The notes: a model not told the origin generated them from the sequence alone. 19,928 nucleotides of DNA from Candidatus Thorarchaeota archaeon (GCA_038893995.1 JAWAQK010000047.1:1-19928); one strand, 5' to 3'; shown: positions 7,883-19,870, counted from the first letter of the stretch. Program-made: numbers and translations.

Positions 7883-8119
7883 CTATGAGGCCTTCAGAGC
7901 GTACAGGAGTTCATCTTCCTGTTCGCCGACGATCTCCACATTTCCCCATCTGAGCATGCCTATGAGGTTCCAGACGATGAGGTCCTTCGGCATCCCTGTG
8001 ACCTCAGCCAGTCTCGTCACTGTGCTGGGGCCGCCTCTCAGGGCCTCCTGTATCGAGGACCTCTGCTTCCGGACGTCCCCACGTCTCTGTGCAAAGAACC
8101 TGACAAACGTGTTGTTCAT
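7883..8119 (-). CDS. Small winged helix-turn-helix protein (78 aa), last gene of the hdr operon
   Basis: ATG at 8119 overlaps the mvhD stop (ATGA). IQEALRGGPSTVTRLAEVTGMPKDLIVWNLIGMLRWGNVE has a wHTH pattern followed by a wing hairpin. Confidence 0.8.
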   Translation of the reverse strand: MNNTFVRFFAQRRGDVRKQRSSIQEALRGGPSTVTRLAEVTGMPKDLIVWNLIGMLRWGNVEIVGEQEDELLYALKAS

Positions 8120-8559
8120 CTCCACACTCTCCTCATTGGACCGAGTCTCCTGACCTGCTCGGTGAACATCCTGACCCCGTCTGCAAATATCTGTGCCTCT
8201 GAGGCGCTCGCCCACTGAAGCCGTATCCGTCTGGGGTCAATACCAGCCTGCTCAATGGCAGACTCCAGCAGCGCCCAGCGGGCCCTCAGCTTGAGGTTCC
8301 CACTGGTGTAGTGACAGTCTCCAGGATGACAGCCAGAGACCAGCACACCGTCTGCGCCCATCTCCAGTGGTGCCAGTATGAAGTCCGGACTTATCCTCCC
8401 AGTGCAGTTGACACGGATGATCCGTGCATTTGGAGGATACTGTATCCGGCTCGTGCCAGCAAGGTCTGCACCAGCGTACGAGCACCAGTTGCAACAGAAG
8501 GCGACTATGCGCGGCTCCCACTTCTGCTGGTCATCTGAGCTCTTCTCTGGAGTTGTCAT
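8116..8559 (-). CDS. mvhD: [2Fe-2S] hydrogenase/Hdr adaptor subunit MvhD (FlpD family)
   Basis: EPRIVAFCCNWCSYAGADLAG, IRVNCTGRI, GADGVLVSGCHPGDCHY..GN, WASASE. ATG 8559 overlaps the upstream stop (ATGA) and follows a GGAGGTGG SD. Confidence 0.95.
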   Translation of the reverse strand: MTTPEKSSDDQQKWEPRIVAFCCNWCSYAGADLAGTSRIQYPPNARIIRVNCTGRISPDFILAPLEMGADGVLVSGCHPGDCHYTSGNLKLRARWALLESAIEQAGIDPRRIRLQWASASEAQIFADGVRMFTEQVRRLGPMRRVWR

Positions 8560-10310
8560 GACCCTCCACCTCCAGCAACGGCCGTCGGAGTGCATAGGAA
8601 TGCCTCCACCATGGCCATGATCTGCTGGTCTGTCGAGTGATACATCACAATTGCACTACTTGGACAGGCTGCTGCGCACGTACCACATCCGTGGCACTTG
8701 GCCTCTGTCACAAGGGCGACAGGTGGGTCTCTCGAATTGTCCATTGATATGGCACCGTACGGGCATGCGGTGACGCATGTCCTGCATGAGGAGCACAGCT
8801 CACTGATGACATGGGATACGGTTGACTCTATCTCCACCTCTCCCCTTGCCATGAGACCGACCGCCTTTGCCGCTGCTCCGCTGGCATCTATGACTGACTC
8901 GGAGGCGTTCTTGGCCGCCTGTGCAGCTCCGGCGATCATAACGCCCGCTGTGTGAGTCGTGAGCGGAGCCAGCTTGATGTGCTCAGGATTGAAGAACCCG
9001 TCTCCGCTACGAGTGAGACTGAAGAGTTTGGAAACATCTGCCGCGTCCGGAGGCGGTACCATTGCTGAGGCCAACACGAGCATGTCCGGTTCGTACATCA
9101 TGTCATCACCAGACAGCACATCGTGCCATGTGACCCTGATCTTGCCGCTCTTGGTGACAGTCACCTCCGGCTTGTTGTCCCTGGGGAATTTGCTGTATAT
9201 CACGTGCTTGGATCTTGCGAGTCTATAGAGCTCCTCATGTCCGCGGCCATATGTCCTGATGTCCTGGTAGAGTATCAGGACCTCATCGACTCTGTCTCGT
9301 AGGTCAGATGCTGCCTTTGCGACGGCAGAGCAGCAGTGTCTTGAACAGTGCTCATGTCCAGGCTTCCCTGGTTCCCTTGAGCCAACGCACCCGATGAATA
9401 CCAACTTCTTGACAGGTTTTCCATCACTTGGCCTCAAGAGATCCTCCCTCGGTCGTAGCTCCTGAAGCTCAGCAAGGGTGACTATATCCTTGGACTCGCC
9501 ATACCCATAGTAACCGTATGGCTTGAACGGCTCGAAGCCTGTCGCCACAATCACAGTGCCGACCTCGTAAGACTCCTCCTTTCCGGTCTTGAGATTCTTG
9601 ACCCTCGCGACGAAATTCCCGATATAGCCCTCAAATCCGACGACCTGACTGTCAGTCAGCACCTTGATGAGTGGATGTCTTGTCACGTTTCTCAGCAGAG
9701 GCGCTATCACTTGCCACCCCGACTCATCTGCTGGGAATAGGTGTGTCCATTTGGCCACATGTCCTCCCAGCTTGGACTGCCTCTCGACAAGGACTACTTC
9801 GAAACCCCTGTCGGCAATATCGCACGCGGCCCTCAGACCTGCGATCCCCCCGCCGACAACAAGTGTTCGGGGTAGGACCTTCACAGTCTTCACTGGTAGA
9901 TGCTCCAGTTGTGCCGCTCTAGCGACCGACATCCGTACCAGGTCGATAGCCTTCTCTGTGGCCTTCTCGGGCTCTCGCATGTGACACCACGAGACATGTT
10001 CTCTGAGGTTGACCTGTTCGAAGAGATATCGATTCAGTCCAGCCTCCTCCACCACGCGTCTGAAAGTAGGCTCATGCATTCTGGGTGAACAGCTGGCCAC
10101 TACGACACGGTTGAGATTCTTCTCTCTGACCTTCTCGCGTATCAATGCTTGACCTGCGTCAGAACACATGAACATCTCGTGTGTCGAGTACACAACGTTC
10201 GGGAAGGATTCGGCCGCCTTGGCCACTCTCTCCACGTCGACCGATCCTGCAATGTTGTGCCCGCAGTGACACACGAAGACACCAATCCTGGGTTCGGTAT
10301 TCTCAGCCAT
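8556..10310 (-). CDS. hdrA: HdrA-family protein (QmoB-like architecture): N-terminal Fe-S domain, FAD domain and C-terminal 2x[4Fe-4S]; lacks the inserted ferredoxin and the FPTxDCxxC motif
   Basis: RIGVFVCHCG, FMCS, VVVASCSPRMHE, NLREHVSW, VGGGIAG, CVGSR-x9-CSRHCC, CSSCRTCVTACPY and CHGCGTCAAACP. ATG 10310 overlaps the upstream TGA. Confidence 0.92.
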   Translation of the reverse strand: MAENTEPRIGVFVCHCGHNIAGSVDVERVAKAAESFPNVVYSTHEMFMCSDAGQALIREKVREKNLNRVVVASCSPRMHEPTFRRVVEEAGLNRYLFEQVNLREHVSWCHMREPEKATEKAIDLVRMSVARAAQLEHLPVKTVKVLPRTLVVGGGIAGLRAACDIADRGFEVVLVERQSKLGGHVAKWTHLFPADESGWQVIAPLLRNVTRHPLIKVLTDSQVVGFEGYIGNFVARVKNLKTGKEESYEVGTVIVATGFEPFKPYGYYGYGESKDIVTLAELQELRPREDLLRPSDGKPVKKLVFIGCVGSREPGKPGHEHCSRHCCSAVAKAASDLRDRVDEVLILYQDIRTYGRGHEELYRLARSKHVIYSKFPRDNKPEVTVTKSGKIRVTWHDVLSGDDMMYEPDMLVLASAMVPPPDAADVSKLFSLTRSGDGFFNPEHIKLAPLTTHTAGVMIAGAAQAAKNASESVIDASGAAAKAVGLMARGEVEIESTVSHVISELCSSCRTCVTACPYGAISMDNSRDPPVALVTEAKCHGCGTCAAACPSSAIVMYHSTDQQIMAMVEAFLCTPTAVAGGGGS

Positions 10311-13305: not shown

Positions 13306-16062
13306 TTATGTCTTGCCTTTCGACTCTTTTCCAGCCAGCATGATCGTGGCGCGCATCGCAGCGGCACTTCCTGCTGACACAGAGTCCGGAATATCTTTGG
13401 GTCCATCTGCACACCCGCAGACGAACACACCTGGAACTCTGGTGTCCACTGGCGTCAGTACCTGATCCGCAACGTCGACATAACCATCAACCGCGAGCTC
13501 CATGCCTAGTTCCACAGCCATGTCCTCGAGACCCTCTGGCGGCTGTATCCCTGGGCTGACAACCACCAGGTCGTGTTCGACATCGTTCACCGTGTGTGCC
13601 TCTGTATCCTCCACACGGAGGATGAGGTTTCCAGTGTCTTTTGCCTCCCTCACCTCCGCCACTCTTCCCCTGACGAACTTGACACCGAACCGTGTGCGTG
13701 CCATCTCGTAGAACTCCTCGAATCCCTTGCCAAACGCCCGTATGTCCGCGTAGTAGACTGTAACATCGGCGTCGGGGTGGTGTTCCTTGGCCATCACTGC
13801 GTTCTTTATCCCGTACATGCAGCACACTCGACTGCAATATGGGACATCCTTGTTGACATCACGTGCACCTACACACTGGACGAATCCTATGGAGCGTGGG
13901 ATCTTACCATCACTGAGTCTGATCAGATGTCCACGGGTAGGGCCTGCGGCATTGATCAGTCTCTCGTACTCCATTGCATGGATGACGTTCGGGTACTTTC
14001 CGTATCCAAGCTGGGTATAGCGGCTCACGTCGAACAGCCTGTAGCCCGTTGCGATGACGATCGCGCCGACGTTGAGCTCGAGCGACTGATCAGTCATGCC
14101 GTGGTCGATAGCGTTTCTCTGACACGCCTGAGCACATCGACCACACTCACAACACACAGCACAATTGAGACATCTCTCAGCCTCAGCGGCAGCGGTCTCC
14201 TCAGAGAATCCCAGTTCGACCTCGCTGAAGGTGCGCTTCCTGCTCTTCACTCCCTGTTTTGGCATGACGGCCCTCTTGGCAAATGGGATATGCGTCTTGT
14301 CGACCTCATACGACTGCACCCTGTGTCGATGCGGAGTCTCCGCCCGTGAACGTAGCTCTCCGCGAAGATACCTGTCTATGGCAATTGCTGCATCCCTGCC
14401 CTGCCCCACTGCCTTGACGACGGTTAGGGGACCTGTGACGACATCCCCTCCTGCAAACACGCCCGGAATGTTGGTCGCCATTGTGGCAGGGTCGACAATC
14501 ACTGTTCCAAACTCTGTACATTCACACTGGGTCTGTACTCCCTGTGGGTCTGTGGACTGGCCGACTGCTACGATGAGTGTGTCGATTGCCAGGGTGAACT
14601 CGGAGCCAGGTATCGGCACTGGTCTCCTCCTACCTGAGTGGTCTGGCTCGCCAAGCCTCATCTTGATGCATCTGATTCCGCTCACGTGACCACCGTGCGA
14701 CAGGACCTCAATCGGAGCAGTGAGCATCATGAACCGGACGCCCTCCTCCTTTGCGTCCTCTACCTCTGACGGAATTGCAGGGATCTCAACGTTTGACCTA
14801 CGGTAGACCACAGTGACCTCCTGTGCGCCAAGTCTGATGGCCACACGTGCTGCGTCGACAGCTGCATCCCCTCCACCCACAACAGCAACTCTACGTCCAA
14901 CTGTGACCGTTTCCCCGTTCGAGATCTTCTCCAGGAATGGTATCGAGTGAATGACTCCTTCGACATCCTCGCCCTTGATGCCCAACTTATTACTGGCCGA
15001 GGCTCCAGTGCCAATGAATACTGCCTTGAATCCCTTCTTGAGCAGATCCCTGACCGATCTCACTGGCGAGTTGGTCTTGATGGTCACGCCCATGTCCTCG
15101 ATGCGTCTTATCTCCTCGTCGAGGATGTTACGTGGAAGTCTGTACTCTGGGATTGCGTATCTCATCAGTCCGCCGGGCTTTGGTTTTGCCTCAAACACGG
15201 TGACTGGATAGCCCATTCTTGCCAGATGATATGCACAACTCAGGCCGGCCGGACCTGCCCCGATGACCGCAACCCTGTCACTCTTGTCTATCTTGGGGGT
15301 CACTGGCTTTCCTAGCTTATGCTCTCGTTCATAGTCTGCGAGGAATCTGTGCAGGTTCCTGATGCTGACGCTAGCGTCATGCATGCCTCTCTCGCACTCA
15401 GCCTCACAGAAACTGATACATACTCGTCCCAGTACCCCTGGAAATGGGATAGACTCTCTCAAGATCTCCAGGGCAGCTGCATAGTCGCCCTGCTTCATCA
15501 TCGTTATGAACCCTTGAGCATTCACATGAGCCGGGCATGTTGCCCGACAGGCCGGCTCGCCCTTCTTCTCGATAGTGTACACGTTGGGCGTGGCCTGTGG
15601 GAACGGTGAATATATGGCCTTCCGGAACCCTATCCCCTGATCGAACTCGCTGGGGACCTCAACTGGGCACGCTGCCACACAATCGCCGCAGCCGGAGCAT
15701 TTACTCTCGTCCACATAGCGTGCCTTGCGTCTGATCTTCACCGTGAAGTTGCCAGGTTCTCCCGTCACCGACTTGACCTCGGAATAAGTCAGCAGCTCGA
15801 TATTGGGATGTCTTGCAGTTTCACTGAGGCGGGGCGTGAGTATACAAGCAGAGCAGTCCAGCGTCGGGAATGTCTTGTCAATCATGGCCATCCTCCCGCC
15901 TATGGATGGAGACTGCTCCAACAGATACACCTTGAACCCCTGATTTGCTATATCGAGTGCCGCCTGCATGCCGGCCACTCCACCGCCGATGACCATTGCA
16001 GCAGGCGTTTCGCGGAGACCCTCACTCATCGATCTCTGGTTCGTGCGACTGGTAACCGTCAT
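13306..16062 (-). CDS. hdrA: HdrL-type large HdrA: HdrA core with a ~470-aa GltD/NfnB-like FAD/NAD(P)H module inserted in the ferredoxin domain
   Basis: HdrA motifs (IGGGVAG, FPTLDCSAC, CSGCGDCVAACP, CSRVCCMYGIK) interrupted at ~15570-14161 by PACRATCP, GRVCISFCEAEC, IGAGPAG, YAIPEYRLP, VGGGDAAVD, VYRRS, FAGGD and EAERCLNC. Start may be 16062 (AGGAG SD) or the next Met (16029). Confidence 0.92.
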   Translation of the reverse strand: MTVTSRTNQRSMSEGLRETPAAMVIGGGVAGMQAALDIANQGFKVYLLEQSPSIGGRMAMIDKTFPTLDCSACILTPRLSETARHPNIELLTYSEVKSVTGEPGNFTVKIRRKARYVDESKCSGCGDCVAACPVEVPSEFDQGIGFRKAIYSPFPQATPNVYTIEKKGEPACRATCPAHVNAQGFITMMKQGDYAAALEILRESIPFPGVLGRVCISFCEAECERGMHDASVSIRNLHRFLADYEREHKLGKPVTPKIDKSDRVAVIGAGPAGLSCAYHLARMGYPVTVFEAKPKPGGLMRYAIPEYRLPRNILDEEIRRIEDMGVTIKTNSPVRSVRDLLKKGFKAVFIGTGASASNKLGIKGEDVEGVIHSIPFLEKISNGETVTVGRRVAVVGGGDAAVDAARVAIRLGAQEVTVVYRRSNVEIPAIPSEVEDAKEEGVRFMMLTAPIEVLSHGGHVSGIRCIKMRLGEPDHSGRRRPVPIPGSEFTLAIDTLIVAVGQSTDPQGVQTQCECTEFGTVIVDPATMATNIPGVFAGGDVVTGPLTVVKAVGQGRDAAIAIDRYLRGELRSRAETPHRHRVQSYEVDKTHIPFAKRAVMPKQGVKSRKRTFSEVELGFSEETAAAEAERCLNCAVCCECGRCAQACQRNAIDHGMTDQSLELNVGAIVIATGYRLFDVSRYTQLGYGKYPNVIHAMEYERLINAAGPTRGHLIRLSDGKIPRSIGFVQCVGARDVNKDVPYCSRVCCMYGIKNAVMAKEHHPDADVTVYYADIRAFGKGFEEFYEMARTRFGVKFVRGRVAEVREAKDTGNLILRVEDTEAHTVNDVEHDLVVVSPGIQPPEGLEDMAVELGMELAVDGYVDVADQVLTPVDTRVPGVFVCGCADGPKDIPDSVSAGSAAAMRATIMLAGKESKGKT
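13700..13977. repeat. Near-identical tract shared with 10695-10972 (copy 2)
   Basis: Same alignment as copy 1. Confidence 0.9.
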
Positions 16063-16173
16063 ATTGGCCTACTCCTGGACCCTATCAGACTGCCGTCCGT
16101 GCACATTGGGTGCCCCAATGGACCTGTCAGAACGGACATCGATTATCTGGCATCCTATACAGTGATGCAACCG

Positions 16174-16181
16174 ATATTAAA
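16174..16181 (-). promoter_or_regulatory. Putative TATA box for hdrL
   Basis: Minus-strand TTTAATAT, about 110 nt upstream of the ATG and the most TATA-like AT-rich stretch of this intergenic region. Confidence 0.5.
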
Positions 16182-16477: not shown

Positions 16478-16843
16478 TCACCTGTGATGTGCCTCGTGGC
16501 ATCCCTCGGTCACCGCGTTCAGAGACCCGCTCATGTATGCGGAGATGATCTCCTCAATAGATGTTGAGCGGGCCTGGAGTACCGATATACCCGCTCTGCG
16601 AAATAGCTCAAGTCCTCTGGGTCCTATTCCTGACACGATCACGGCGTCGGGTCGCATTTGCATTACATTGTCATGGGTGAATCCGTGACCACCAAGGTGA
16701 CTGCTTCTGTTCTCGTGAACGGAAGTCTTGACCTCCCCCTTACTGTCATCGATCTCGACCAGTACCAAGTAGGGGGCGCGTCCAAAGTGAGCACCGAGCT
16801 TCTTGCCCTGTTGGTCGTCCGATGGAATAACGATTCTCCTCAA
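16478..16843 (-). CDS. NifB/NifX (COG1433, dinitrogenase FeMo-cofactor family) protein, His-rich
   Basis: TTG start at 16843 after an AGGAGG SD, 1 nt after the upstream stop. RIVIPS, AHFGRAPY, DAVIVSGIGPRG, AGI; HLGGHGFTH loop and CHEAHHR tail. Confidence 0.88.
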   Translation of the reverse strand: MRRIVIPSDDQQGKKLGAHFGRAPYLVLVEIDDSKGEVKTSVHENRSSHLGGHGFTHDNVMQMRPDAVIVSGIGPRGLELFRRAGISVLQARSTSIEEIISAYMSGSLNAVTEGCHEAHHR

Positions 16844-16844
16844 T

Positions 16845-17279
16845 CTATCGAGCGCCTCCTTGAGACCAACGACCATGTCCCACTGCAGGTCTGGTTCCTC
16901 GGCCATGCCCAGCTCCTCCGCAGTTTCCCTGACCGAGTGTCGCAGTACTGATGGGCCTCGCCTCACCCCTGATGTATCGGTCGACCGCCTCTCTGACAGT
17001 ACTTGCGGAAGCATCGAGAACTTGGATGCCTGCAGCTCTGAGTGCGCTCATGGCATGGGGCCCAAAGTTCCCAGTCAACACACCATCGACGTGATGAGAC
17101 ACCACAAGTTGAGCTGCCTGAATCCCAGCACCCCCGACTGCCTGCGCCCCCGGGTCAGCAACTGCAGTAGTGTCATCTGTGTCAGTATCCACGATCACAG
17201 ACCAACTGCAACGTCCGAATCTTGGATCGTCTCCCAAGTTCAGAGTGTCTCCAGTCGCTGACACACACAACCTTGTCAT
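16845..17279 (-). CDS. NifB/NifX (COG1433, orange-protein-like) protein with Gly-rich tail
   Basis: ATG 17279 after a GAGGTG SD. DPRFGRC, GGAGIQAAQ, VLTGNFGPHA..L.AAGI, TVREAV; tail GQGNCGGAGHGRG. Confidence 0.9.
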   Translation of the reverse strand: MTRLCVSATGDTLNLGDDPRFGRCSWSVIVDTDTDDTTAVADPGAQAVGGAGIQAAQLVVSHHVDGVLTGNFGPHAMSALRAAGIQVLDASASTVREAVDRYIRGEARPISTATLGQGNCGGAGHGRGTRPAVGHGRWSQGGAR

Positions 17280-17309: not shown

Positions 17310-17348
17310 TGAATCAATATTCACAAACGTTATCGGGATCCATTTAAA
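17310..17348 (-). promoter_or_regulatory. Promoter of the NifB/NifX pair: TATA box plus 14-bp palindromic operator
   Basis: Minus-strand TTTAAAT (17348-17342). TGAATCAATATTCA (17310-17323) lies over the expected start site and has an identical copy at 18889-18902. Confidence 0.7.
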
Positions 17349-17440
17349 CCATCGCATAGTAACACAGTATCACGACAGACGAGCCGCCTCCCACTCGGGC
17401 TGATTGCGTTTTTCATGGGCTCTGGCCCGCCTCTGTGATT

Positions 17441-17776
17441 CTACACATACTCGCTGTCCACATCTCTGTGATCCTTGCGCCCCAGCACATAGCTACCACC
17501 TTCGATACGGATCATCCATCCGTTCACGAGGGCGGTAGCGACCTTCTGTCTTGCAGAATTGAGAGTCCTATTGAACGTGGGCTGGCTGACTTCCATTCTC
17601 TCGGATGCATCCCTCTGGTCCAGTCCCTCGAGGTCCGAAAGCCTCAGTGCCTCTAGTTCATCCACAGTGAGCACGACCTCCTCCAGGCATCTGGCCGGGA
17701 CGCCTGCTGGCTTGAAGACTGTTGTAGGAGGCATACGACTCACAAGACGACACCTTCTTCTTCGGGGCATGGCCAT
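17441..17776 (-). CDS. DUF134 (UPF0251) HTH DNA-binding protein
   Basis: MPRRRRCR, FKPAG, LTVDELEALRLSDLEGLDQ..A...MEVSQPTF.R.L.SARQKVA.ALV.G..I.IEGG is the DUF134 signature. Confidence 0.92.
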   Translation of the reverse strand: MAMPRRRRCRLVSRMPPTTVFKPAGVPARCLEEVVLTVDELEALRLSDLEGLDQRDASERMEVSQPTFNRTLNSARQKVATALVNGWMIRIEGGSYVLGRKDHRDVDSEYV

Positions 17777-17805
17777 ATCTCCATCTCATCTAGAGCAATA
17801 AAGGT

Positions 17806-18003
17806 TCACGGAAATGCGAACCAGCTGTCTGCGGGTACCCGCTTCAAGACATCATCCCACATCTCACGCAGGAGTGCCGTTAGGTCACTCTCAGGTGCAT
17901 CGAGGTCACAGTCGGCGAAGACACTCCTTGCAGATAGCACAGCAAATGCCGCACAGTGTCGACTTACCGGTCCCTCCCCCGATGCAATGGCCACTATCAA
18001 CAA
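17806..18003 (-). pseudogene. Relic of a MinD-superfamily P-loop ATPase (COG1149-like): frameshifted Walker A and large internal deletion
   Basis: Reads IVAIASG, with GGTGKSTL in a shifted frame (17977-17954), then AAFAVL..VFADCDLDAP joined directly to the C-terminal-like ESDLTALLREMW. GGTGA SD before TTG 18003. Confidence 0.75.
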
Positions 18004-18032
18004 AGTACTCTCACCCGAGATCGACATGTGGG

Positions 18033-18845
18033 TCAGAGGCCGATGGATTCGGATATTCTCCTACACAGCTCGGCAAACGACTTGGCTGACTCCGAGTCAG
18101 GCTGGCCTATGACAAACGGGGTGCCCTCGTCAGTCAGCCTTGATATTGATGGATCCATTGGTATAGAACCGAGATACGGTATGCCATAGTCTCTCGCGGC
18201 TCGCTCCACTGCTCCCTCACCCATCAGTCGATACCTGGCACCACACTTCGGGCAGACGAACTCGCCCATGTTCTCGACGACACCCAGTACTCGGACCCCC
18301 ATTCGTTGGGTGAGCTGAATGGCCCTCCTTGCTCCGAGTACGGCAACCTCTTGCGGAGTGGACACTATCAGAGTCCCATCGACTGATGGTATCAACTGAA
18401 GGATGCTCAGGATCTCGTCCCCGGTCCCGGGTGGCAGATCAACGACGAGCAGGTCCAAGTCTCCCCACTCCACATCGCTCAGGAATTGACTGATTGCCTT
18501 TGCGACCAGCGGCCCCCTCCATGCGACTGCGTCGTCTGCGTTTCTCAGGAGGAATCCCATGCTCATGACCTTCACATCGAGAGGCCCATTGACTGGAAGA
18601 ATTGACTTTTCTAGGACCTCGGGGTGTTGACCCTGCAGGCCCAATATCTTGGGGATGGTGGGTCCGTAGATGTCCACGTCGAGTATTCCAGACTTCACGT
18701 CCGACTTGGCAAATGCCATCGCCAGATTGGCGGATACGGTACTCTTCCCTACTCCCCCCTTGCCAGACAGCACCACTACTTTGTGCCTAACTCGCTTCAT
18801 CCGCTCGCGGACCTCAGTCGGGATCATGCTCTCCCTGTCCTGCAT
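18033..18845 (-). CDS. mrp: Mrp/NBP35 (ApbC) Fe-S cluster carrier ATPase
   Basis: VLSGKGGVGKS, DVDIYGP, WRGP, DLPPGTGDE, STPQ, ENM..F.CPKCG. ATG 18845 preferred over TTG 18896, which lies inside the operator. Confidence 0.95.
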   Translation of the reverse strand: MQDRESMIPTEVRERMKRVRHKVVVLSGKGGVGKSTVSANLAMAFAKSDVKSGILDVDIYGPTIPKILGLQGQHPEVLEKSILPVNGPLDVKVMSMGFLLRNADDAVAWRGPLVAKAISQFLSDVEWGDLDLLVVDLPPGTGDEILSILQLIPSVDGTLIVSTPQEVAVLGARRAIQLTQRMGVRVLGVVENMGEFVCPKCGARYRLMGEGAVERAARDYGIPYLGSIPMDPSISRLTDEGTPFVIGQPDSESAKSFAELCRRISESIGL

Positions 18846-18888
18846 AGTATTCGTTCTGCCACCTGTCGGATCTAGACCACACGTAATC

Positions 18889-18908
18889 TGAATCAATATT
18901 CATTTAAG
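18889..18908 (-). promoter_or_regulatory. mrp promoter: TATA-like box plus 14-bp palindromic operator
   Basis: TGAATCAATATTCA (18889-18902) abuts minus-strand CTTAAAT (18908-18902). Confidence 0.7.
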
Positions 18909-19123
18909 GATGGTGATATATGTGAATTCAACAAACCTCGATGTACCACTCCATACCAGGACACACTGGGTCACAGTGAACAGGTACCCATGCAGTGGAC
19001 GACGTGCGTCGTCCTTTGCTCACTGACAGTGAGTCTGGCACGTGTTTCTGGCCTGCACAGATAGATCCTGACTCCAACTATTGACCATCGTCGTTTCCTA
19101 GAGTCAGGCACCGACCTGAGCTC

Positions 19124-19858
19124 TCATGTTGGTCCATCTGGTCTGTTCTTTTCGGCCTCAGCGTATCTTCTCCTCAGAAACTCGGGCATCGACCATCCAA
19201 ACCAGGCATGGAGGACCGTGACCATCATGAAGGTCATTACGACCAGGAAGAACAGGTTACCGGTCACTGGATCAGAACCGAACAGGGAAGATGCCATGAA
19301 CAGGAAGAAGGTAGCGATGTACAGCAATGAAAAGCGACCCACGAGGATGAATTTCATCCTCGTCAGGAGCCGGGATGCCTTAGGAGCAGTTTCTCTACAT
19401 GCAAGGTACAGTGGAACATACATGCCAAGTGTCAGGATTGCAAAGGGTAGAGCCATCGTTGCAGGAGGGCCGTAGGCGATCTCCTCTCCAAGTATGGCCC
19501 TCAGTAGGAAGCCGCTCAGAAAGGAAATGGTTGGCAGATACCACCTGTTTCTCGGTCTGAATAGACCCACATAGAAGTAGGCCATTAGAGGATACGACGC
19601 AATGAAGAAGACAAAGAAGATGTAGACCAGAAGGTCAGCAGTGGCATTTGCGCCGACTGCTATTACTATGTACTCTGCGGAGACCTCAAAGATGAGTCCG
19701 ATACCCATCAACATGATCGATAGCGCAAGCGATGCTGTGAGCGGATCTCGGTCCTTTCTCCAGACCATGAGAAGTCTGAGAGATGCATAGATGAACAGTA
19801 GCGCCGATAGTGTGTTTCCCACTGCCGCAACTATGGTAGTGTTCGGATTGAGAACCAT
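19124..19858 (-). CDS. Hypothetical 7-TM membrane protein
   Basis: GAGGTGG SD before ATG 19858. About seven hydrophobic helices ending in FGWSMPEFLRR. Confidence 0.8.
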   Translation of the reverse strand: MVLNPNTTIVAAVGNTLSALLFIYASLRLLMVWRKDRDPLTASLALSIMLMGIGLIFEVSAEYIVIAVGANATADLLVYIFFVFFIASYPLMAYFYVGLFRPRNRWYLPTISFLSGFLLRAILGEEIAYGPPATMALPFAILTLGMYVPLYLACRETAPKASRLLTRMKFILVGRFSLLYIATFFLFMASSLFGSDPVTGNLFFLVVMTFMMVTVLHAWFGWSMPEFLRRRYAEAEKNRPDGPT

Positions 19859-19870
19859 CAAACATCCACC

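Follow-up and report, generated by a model that had tools for sequence, protein, structure and literature searches.

The DUF134 protein encoded in a 19,928-nt stretch of Candidatus Thorarchaeota DNA (the window) probably acts as a dimeric repressor of two promoters, which it would control through two 14-bp palindromic operators. The palindrome TGAATCAATATTCA is found exactly at 17310–17323 and 18889–18902 on the same strand, and reads TGAATATTGATTCA at both sites in gene orientation (minus strand). An earlier note on this DNA had claimed that an exact 14-mer occurs twice in the same orientation, that both copies are intergenic and lie downstream of TATA-like boxes, and that they represent a repressor-type DUF134 operator for Fe-S/metal-cluster genes. 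The first two claims were borne out by the genome scan and by direct reading of both promoters, and the third is supported by comparative genomics together with a predicted dimeric helix-turn-helix (HTH) protein.

The window is the entire contig C47 of a 91%-complete genome of 2,326,833 bases in 82 contigs, and a whole-genome scan returned only these two exact copies of TGAATCAATATTCA, with every other site differing at two or more positions. Estimated from base composition, a second copy is expected by chance about 0.01 times per genome and about 6e-6 times within 1.6 kb. Both copies are non-coding, and sequence identity between them is confined to the 14 bases; the flanks are unrelated, which rules out a segmental duplication. 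The scan favoured the exact pair, which is unique, but not the looser motif TGAAT-N4-ATTCA, which stays at background level with five genomic occurrences against 0–5 for other spacer lengths; the three extra copies include two inside open reading frames and one that has no adjoining TATA box. Since the genome has no excess of TGAAT-N4-ATTCA, what stands out is the exact pair and where it lies. When up to one half-site mismatch was tolerated, the genome gave 46 sites, six of them non-coding, and the only ones adjoining a TATA box are the window's two; no further regulon member was found among these 46 sites. A 9/14 match at hdrL (16167–16180) had been counted correctly in the earlier note but is a chance match and was rejected as an operator, since 7,421 genome positions match at 9/14 or better and its half-sites carry 4/10 mismatches. 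A lone TGAAT half-site is also seen at 18917–18930 (minus strand), within the 14-mer TGAATTCACATATA, which has two half-site mismatches; its start lies 28 nt upstream of that of the mrp operator.

All genes in the island region lie on the minus strand, and their order from high to low coordinates is a membrane protein gene (19124–19861), mrp (18033–18845), a COG1149 remnant (17806–18027), DUF134 (17441–17776), two COG1433 genes (16845–17279 and 16478–16843) and a large HdrA-like gene (13306–16062). The mrp gene encodes an mrp/ApbC/Nbp35-type Fe-S carrier ATPase of 270 aa with a CPKC motif (PF10609, 315.8 bits), and the two COG1433 genes (Nitro_FeMo-Co, PF02579; 67.7 and 56.2 bits) are the only PF02579 genes of the genome. 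The second of them likely starts at a TTG at 16843, one base past the stop of the first; its orthologues in relatives encode 122–126 aa and abut gene 1. These genes had been described as a NifB/NifX pair, and the operator does lie upstream of the pair, but the products are two small PF02579/COG1433 proteins and not NifB. The COG1149 remnant, 73 codons of a MinD-type Fe-S ATPase gene, has no Pfam match and was recognised by its 43–45% identity to the N-termini of relatives' proteins of 287–364 aa; a search of the rest of the 91%-complete genome gave no intact COG1149 homologue. The ORP-like set of this genome, as far as it is complete, consists of Mrp, the two PF02579 genes and this remnant, and the mrp and COG1433 units would then represent everything that is left of an ORP-like (orange-protein-type) metal-cluster island.

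TATA boxes and transcription start sites are throughout deduced from the sequence. At the mrp promoter, a TATA-like box CCTTAAAT (18902–18909, minus strand), assigned by direct reading and by the arrangement in relatives, shares one base with the candidate operator O-mrp (18889–18902, minus strand): the first T of O-mrp belongs to both, and O-mrp ends 43 nt before the mrp ATG (18845). At the COG1433 promoter, the TATA-like box TTTAAAT (17342–17348, minus strand), assigned on the same grounds, is followed 18 nt downstream by the candidate operator O-nif (17310–17323, minus strand), which lies 30 nt before the first COG1433 ATG (17279) and covers the expected transcription start of the unit. Both candidates are delimited by the exact copies and by the orthologous mrp and COG1433 promoters. 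The window has only one good site per promoter, unlike relatives with tandem sites; a second tandem operator at the COG1433 promoter was rejected, because only traces with at least 4/10 mismatches and a wrong spacing of 19 nt are present. DUF134 has a TATA-like element of its own, CCTTTATTG (17796–17804, minus strand), about 30 nt before its ATG and conserved in position among relatives, and no operator follows CCTTTATTG in the window genome; an operator there was rejected, with 6/10 mismatches. Autoregulation through the mrp transcript, as suggested earlier, is thus possible only by read-through from the mrp promoter and is uncertain, since the DUF134 promoter itself lacks an operator.

About 100 related loci formed the base of the comparison, the closest named ones being Candidatus Thorarchaeota MAGs; DUF134 orthologues with 53–68% identity are present in 18 genomes of the same family, and about 10 kb around each was compared. 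In related Thorarchaeota, TGAAT-N4-ATTCA adjoins the TATA box at mrp, COG1433 and DUF134 promoters, with TTTAAAT, TTTATA or CTTATA standing upstream of the operators at orthologous promoters. For instance, G013 and G024 have the order membrane protein, mrp, COG1149, COG1149, DUF134, COG1433, COG1433, which matches the window except that two intact COG1149 genes take the place of the remnant; their mrp orthologues (76–79% identical) head the same cluster, their mrp promoters have CTTATA or TTTAAA immediately followed by TGAATCTGGATTC(G/A), and their COG1433 promoters carry two TGAAT-N4-ATTCA-like sites each. Upstream of the COG1433 operon, G020 and G007 have TTTATA or CTTATA, then a perfect site and a second perfect site 23 bp on. 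Tandem sites 22–25 bp apart recur among relatives and suggest that two dimers may bind at some promoters. In 20 related loci, a T-rich TATA-like element stands equally far upstream of DUF134; the site directly follows this element, 10–25 nt before the DUF134 ATG, in G011, G005, G017, G023 and G035, and is weaker in G009 and G020. Many Thorarchaeota have DUF134 set among housekeeping genes (NMD3, FEN1, aIF2-beta), where it is still preceded by the site in L033, L046 and L047 and not in others. About half of the Thorarchaeota orthologues have no recognisable site at their own promoter (L036–L040, L042, L044), and G004 has no perfect TGAAT-N4-ATTCA genome-wide.

The motif was also recovered by enumeration. 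When all 5-mer inverted repeats with spacers of 0–8 were counted in 31 Thorarchaeota promoter regions (DUF134, COG1433 and mrp), TGAAT-N4-ATTCA ranked first with 8 regions from 7 loci; the second was its own inner register, and all others occurred in at most two regions. The symmetrised matrix of 15 sites reads TGAAT[C>A]WW[G>T]ATTCA, in which the half-sites are kept and the spacer is variable. A genome-wide excess was sought in the relatives and rejected, the 0–28 perfect palindromes per genome being background: a read-backwards control gave 0–2 per genome and is biased low, and in a spacer-length control (spacers 0–10) N4 was not enriched, with 26 in G014 at N4 against about 21.5 per spacer. 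Apart from this, L041 of G005 has two near-perfect tandem sites 24 bp apart, about 120–150 nt past the DUF134 stop and about 270–290 nt ahead of a gene for an acetyl-CoA-synthetase-like protein (AMP-binding, 663 aa); they may belong to a further regulon member or reflect a wrongly called start.

Contigs were further scanned with a DUF134 alignment, and 80 named loci were kept, 35 archaeal and 45 bacterial. TGAAT-N4-ATTCA with at most one mismatch begins 1–40 nt upstream of the DUF134 ATG in 16/35 archaeal loci, where 0.25 is expected from the remainder of the same loci, and the lineages with the site are Thor-, Hermod-, Bathy-, Aenigm-, Nano- and Pacearchaeota and one Methanomicrobia MAG. At the equivalent position, downstream of the -10 region, bacterial loci have TGAGC-N4-GCTCA (14/45) or TGAAC-N4-GTTCA (4/45); the archaeal type was found there in 0/45 bacterial loci, and neither domain shows the other's type. 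The Poisson P values (1e-23 and 6e-30) are too favourable, since related loci do not count as independent cases. The frame common to both domains is a 14-bp TGA-N8-TCA palindrome, and a Lokiarchaeial TGAATAATTATTCA and the bacterial ATGAAC-N4-GTTCAT are likewise candidate DUF134 operator palindromes. The occurrence of the site in so many unrelated lineages would be difficult to account for if it were not tied to the DUF134 gene. Within the family, three genomes (G008, G012, G014) have only a paralogous DUF134 type, and their COG1433 promoters have other palindromes in place of TGAAT-N4-ATTCA; those before COG1433 in L132–L136 of these genomes include GTTACA-N3-TGTAAC and a TTGTG-N6-CACAA-like one. 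The type of site thus goes with the type of regulator, which suggests that each DUF134 subtype has its own operator type. Bacterial and archaeal DUF134 proteins share the same recognition helix, yet positions 4–5 of the half-site differ, which leaves the specificity determinants unexplained. In Desulfovibrio/Mailhella (L081, L097, L123), DUF134 is longer than elsewhere (225–237 aa), and a conserved TTATGCTCAWTTGTGCAAAAC upstream replaces the bacterial TGAGC-N4-GCTCA.

The window's regulator belongs to DUF134/UPF0251 (PF02001, COG1342) with 86.1 bits over residues 4–97 against a cut-off of 27, and is the only copy of the genome. In the control panel of that search, Methanosarcina acetivorans and Methanocaldococcus jannaschii also had a DUF134 gene. 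It has 109–111 aa, depending on the start (an MPRR start lies at 17770), and contains both the MPRxxKxRxV...FKPxG arm and the VSQPTxxR recognition helix. In alignment A1, R3, R8, V10, P14, G23, S62, Q63, P64, T65 and R68 are invariant, and the recognition helix VSQPTFNR varies hardly at all. Among solved structures, the nearest match in sequence is the B. subtilis DeoR DNA-binding domain (7BHY/8R7Y, E 2.7e-4). The AlphaFold model (pLDDT 80.5) has a three-helix HTH core that superposes on sigma-70 region 4 and DeoR domains at 0.6–0.9 Å over 40–49 residues; a Foldseek search of the PDB gave nothing at E ≤ 0.001 and HTH domain matches at 0.04–0.1, weak values that stem from the small size of the domain, and these matches were taken as evidence of fold class only. 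The homodimer prediction scored 0.79, compared with 0.00 for the best of three controls; this mark was reached by 20/30 solved one-chain pairs and 1/23 solved single chains, counts that hold only roughly here because a custom alignment was used. At least 70% of contacts agreed between runs, and partner pLDDT was at least 72. The predicted interface consists of residues 17–22, 39–49 and 74–89 and leaves the recognition helix free. The modelling lends support to a putative DUF134 homodimer.

The C-terminal part of the protein bears on what it might sense. A Cys4 ribbon (CxxC...CPxC after an IEGG hairpin) is present in 14/16 aligned proteins and absent from the window copy and L032; DUF134 proteins with this tail have 134–153 aa, and the window protein ends at residue 109, so that it is not of the Cys4-ribbon Thorarchaeota type. 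A frame-shifted, decayed relic of the zinc ribbon can be traced at 17340–17455 (minus strand), where CxxC/CPxC read CVES/QPEW with 3/4 Cys positions replaced and the sequence continues as MRWFKW, compared with LRWxRW in relatives; these matches are collinear but individually weak and not significant. Many bacterial DUF134 proteins have Cys7 plus three C-terminal Cys, and family members could reasonably sense through a metal or cluster bound by Cys. The Fe-S/metal sensing suggested earlier is doubtful for the window copy, which has lost the Cys4 tail; the window regulator may not respond to any signal, or it may detect one in another way. The truncated protein and the operator-less promoter of its own gene indicate that the system may be decaying.

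A repressor mechanism can be outlined on this basis, in which we infer binding, its sign and any signal from the sequence, position and conservation of the sites and from the fold class of the protein. A DUF134 homodimer would place its two HTH motifs on the TGAAT half-sites, the centres of which are 9 bp apart. The bound site would adjoin the TATA box at the mrp promoter and would cover the expected start at the COG1433 promoter; bound DUF134 would then hinder the recruitment of TFB and RNA polymerase and block assembly of the pre-initiation complex, and both transcription units, the mrp unit and the COG1433 unit, would be repressed. As is usual for a repressor and its operator, the palindrome overlaps core promoter elements and is conserved at orthologous promoters. 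Promoter-occluding repressors of the NrpR, MDR1 and Phr types usually sit between the TATA box and the start. The archaeal sites lie between TATA box and start and the bacterial ones past the -10 region, which is why DUF134 is read as a repressor.

Other readings of the same sites were weighed against this mechanism. Archaeal activators usually bind upstream of BRE/TATA, and the placement of the sites between TATA box and start in the window and its relatives, and downstream of the -10 region in bacteria, is typical of repressors and argues against DUF134 binding as an activator or dual regulator; we regard such a role as rather unlikely, although the sign of regulation cannot be read from sequence and the ORP operons of Desulfovibrio are run by an activator, OrpR (PMC8359166). 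It is improbable that the palindrome serves another trans-acting regulator, for which the candidate is an HTH-like ORF 9 kb away (7883–8215, minus strand), probably the wHTH protein named as an alternative in the earlier note. This ORF has a winged-helix-like C-terminal half and no Pfam match, and stands beside an mvhD-like gene (8116–8595). In 20 related loci, the DNA up to 5 kb from DUF134 contains no homologue of it; the site precedes DUF134 in some loci, although not in others, where the gene is set among housekeeping genes, and the site type changes along with the DUF134 subtype. A palindrome with no protein partner at all, whether a core-promoter feature, an RNA hairpin of the 5'-leader, a product of chance or a duplication remnant, is most improbable. 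A transcribed palindrome could fold into a short hairpin, but the site adjoins the TATA box, and so lies upstream of the expected start, at mrp and in the majority of the relatives' promoters; moreover, the site is confined to these promoter classes, its flanks are unrelated, and an exact second copy is rare by chance. Repression by a DUF134 dimer therefore remains the preferred reading.

The proposed repressor resembles several known systems in part. B. subtilis DeoR (SorC family) binds the palindromic dra-nupC-pdp operator as a repressor. Its DNA-binding domain (7BHY, 8R7Y) has the same sigma-70-region-4-type HTH fold as DUF134, at 0.8 Å over 40 residues, and its ISRPTVSRLL corresponds to VSQPTFNRIL of DUF134. 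DUF134 differs from DeoR in having a basic arm with strands at its N-terminus and, in most members, a Cys4 ribbon at its C-terminus, and its operator sequence is unlike that of DeoR; the window protein would work in the manner of a DeoR DNA-binding domain but does not belong to the SorC/DeoR family, as only the HTH matches and 109 aa leave no SorC-type, sugar-phosphate-binding effector domain. Archaeal repressors of the NrpR, MDR1, Phr and TrmB types have palindromic operators that are sometimes in tandem, block polymerase recruitment and are frequently autoregulated; they differ from DUF134 in protein family and motif.

The target genes themselves recall the ORP island of Desulfovibrio, which contains the Mrp-type Orp9, a COG1433 orange protein and COG1149 Orp3/Orp4 (PMC6345978). 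OrpR is a sigma-54 activator that senses the redox state through an Fe-S cluster and was reported to occur in Deltaproteobacteria only (PMC8359166). The orp operons of Desulfovibrio vulgaris and the DUF134 system have in common similar target genes, a dedicated local regulator and a very small regulon, and the Fe-S cluster of OrpR is held by Cys residues; DUF134 is an unrelated small HTH protein with repressor-like placement of its sites, and archaea lack sigma-54. A broader idea, possible but tentative, is that DUF134 proteins are ancient Cys-ligated (metal, Fe-S or redox) sensing repressors of Bacteria and Archaea that act on TGA-N8-TCA and govern ORP-like genes, as the counterpart of OrpR outside Deltaproteobacteria, with the Thorarchaeote as a 'sensor-less' derivative. 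If this were true, the zinc-ribbon tail and COG1149 would have decayed while two perfect operators were kept, and one natural example would separate DNA binding from signal sensing.

No published DUF134 function or operator was found in the literature searched (DUF134, COG1342, UPF0251, PF02001 and motif strings), in line with the earlier note, which knew of no defined DUF134 operator. As a mechanism, the proposed pair is of the conventional repressor-operator kind; its protein family is uncharacterised. DUF134 is widespread in anaerobic bacteria and archaea, and to our knowledge almost no transcription factor-operator pairs are known in Asgard archaea. With defined candidate operators (TGAAT-N4-ATTCA in archaea, TGAGC/TGAAC-N4 palindromes in bacteria) and few, coherent targets (Mrp, COG1433, COG1149 and DUF134 itself), the family becomes testable, and confirmed binding would give a handle on the control of the poorly understood ORP-like metal-cluster proteins, including those of Asgard archaea.
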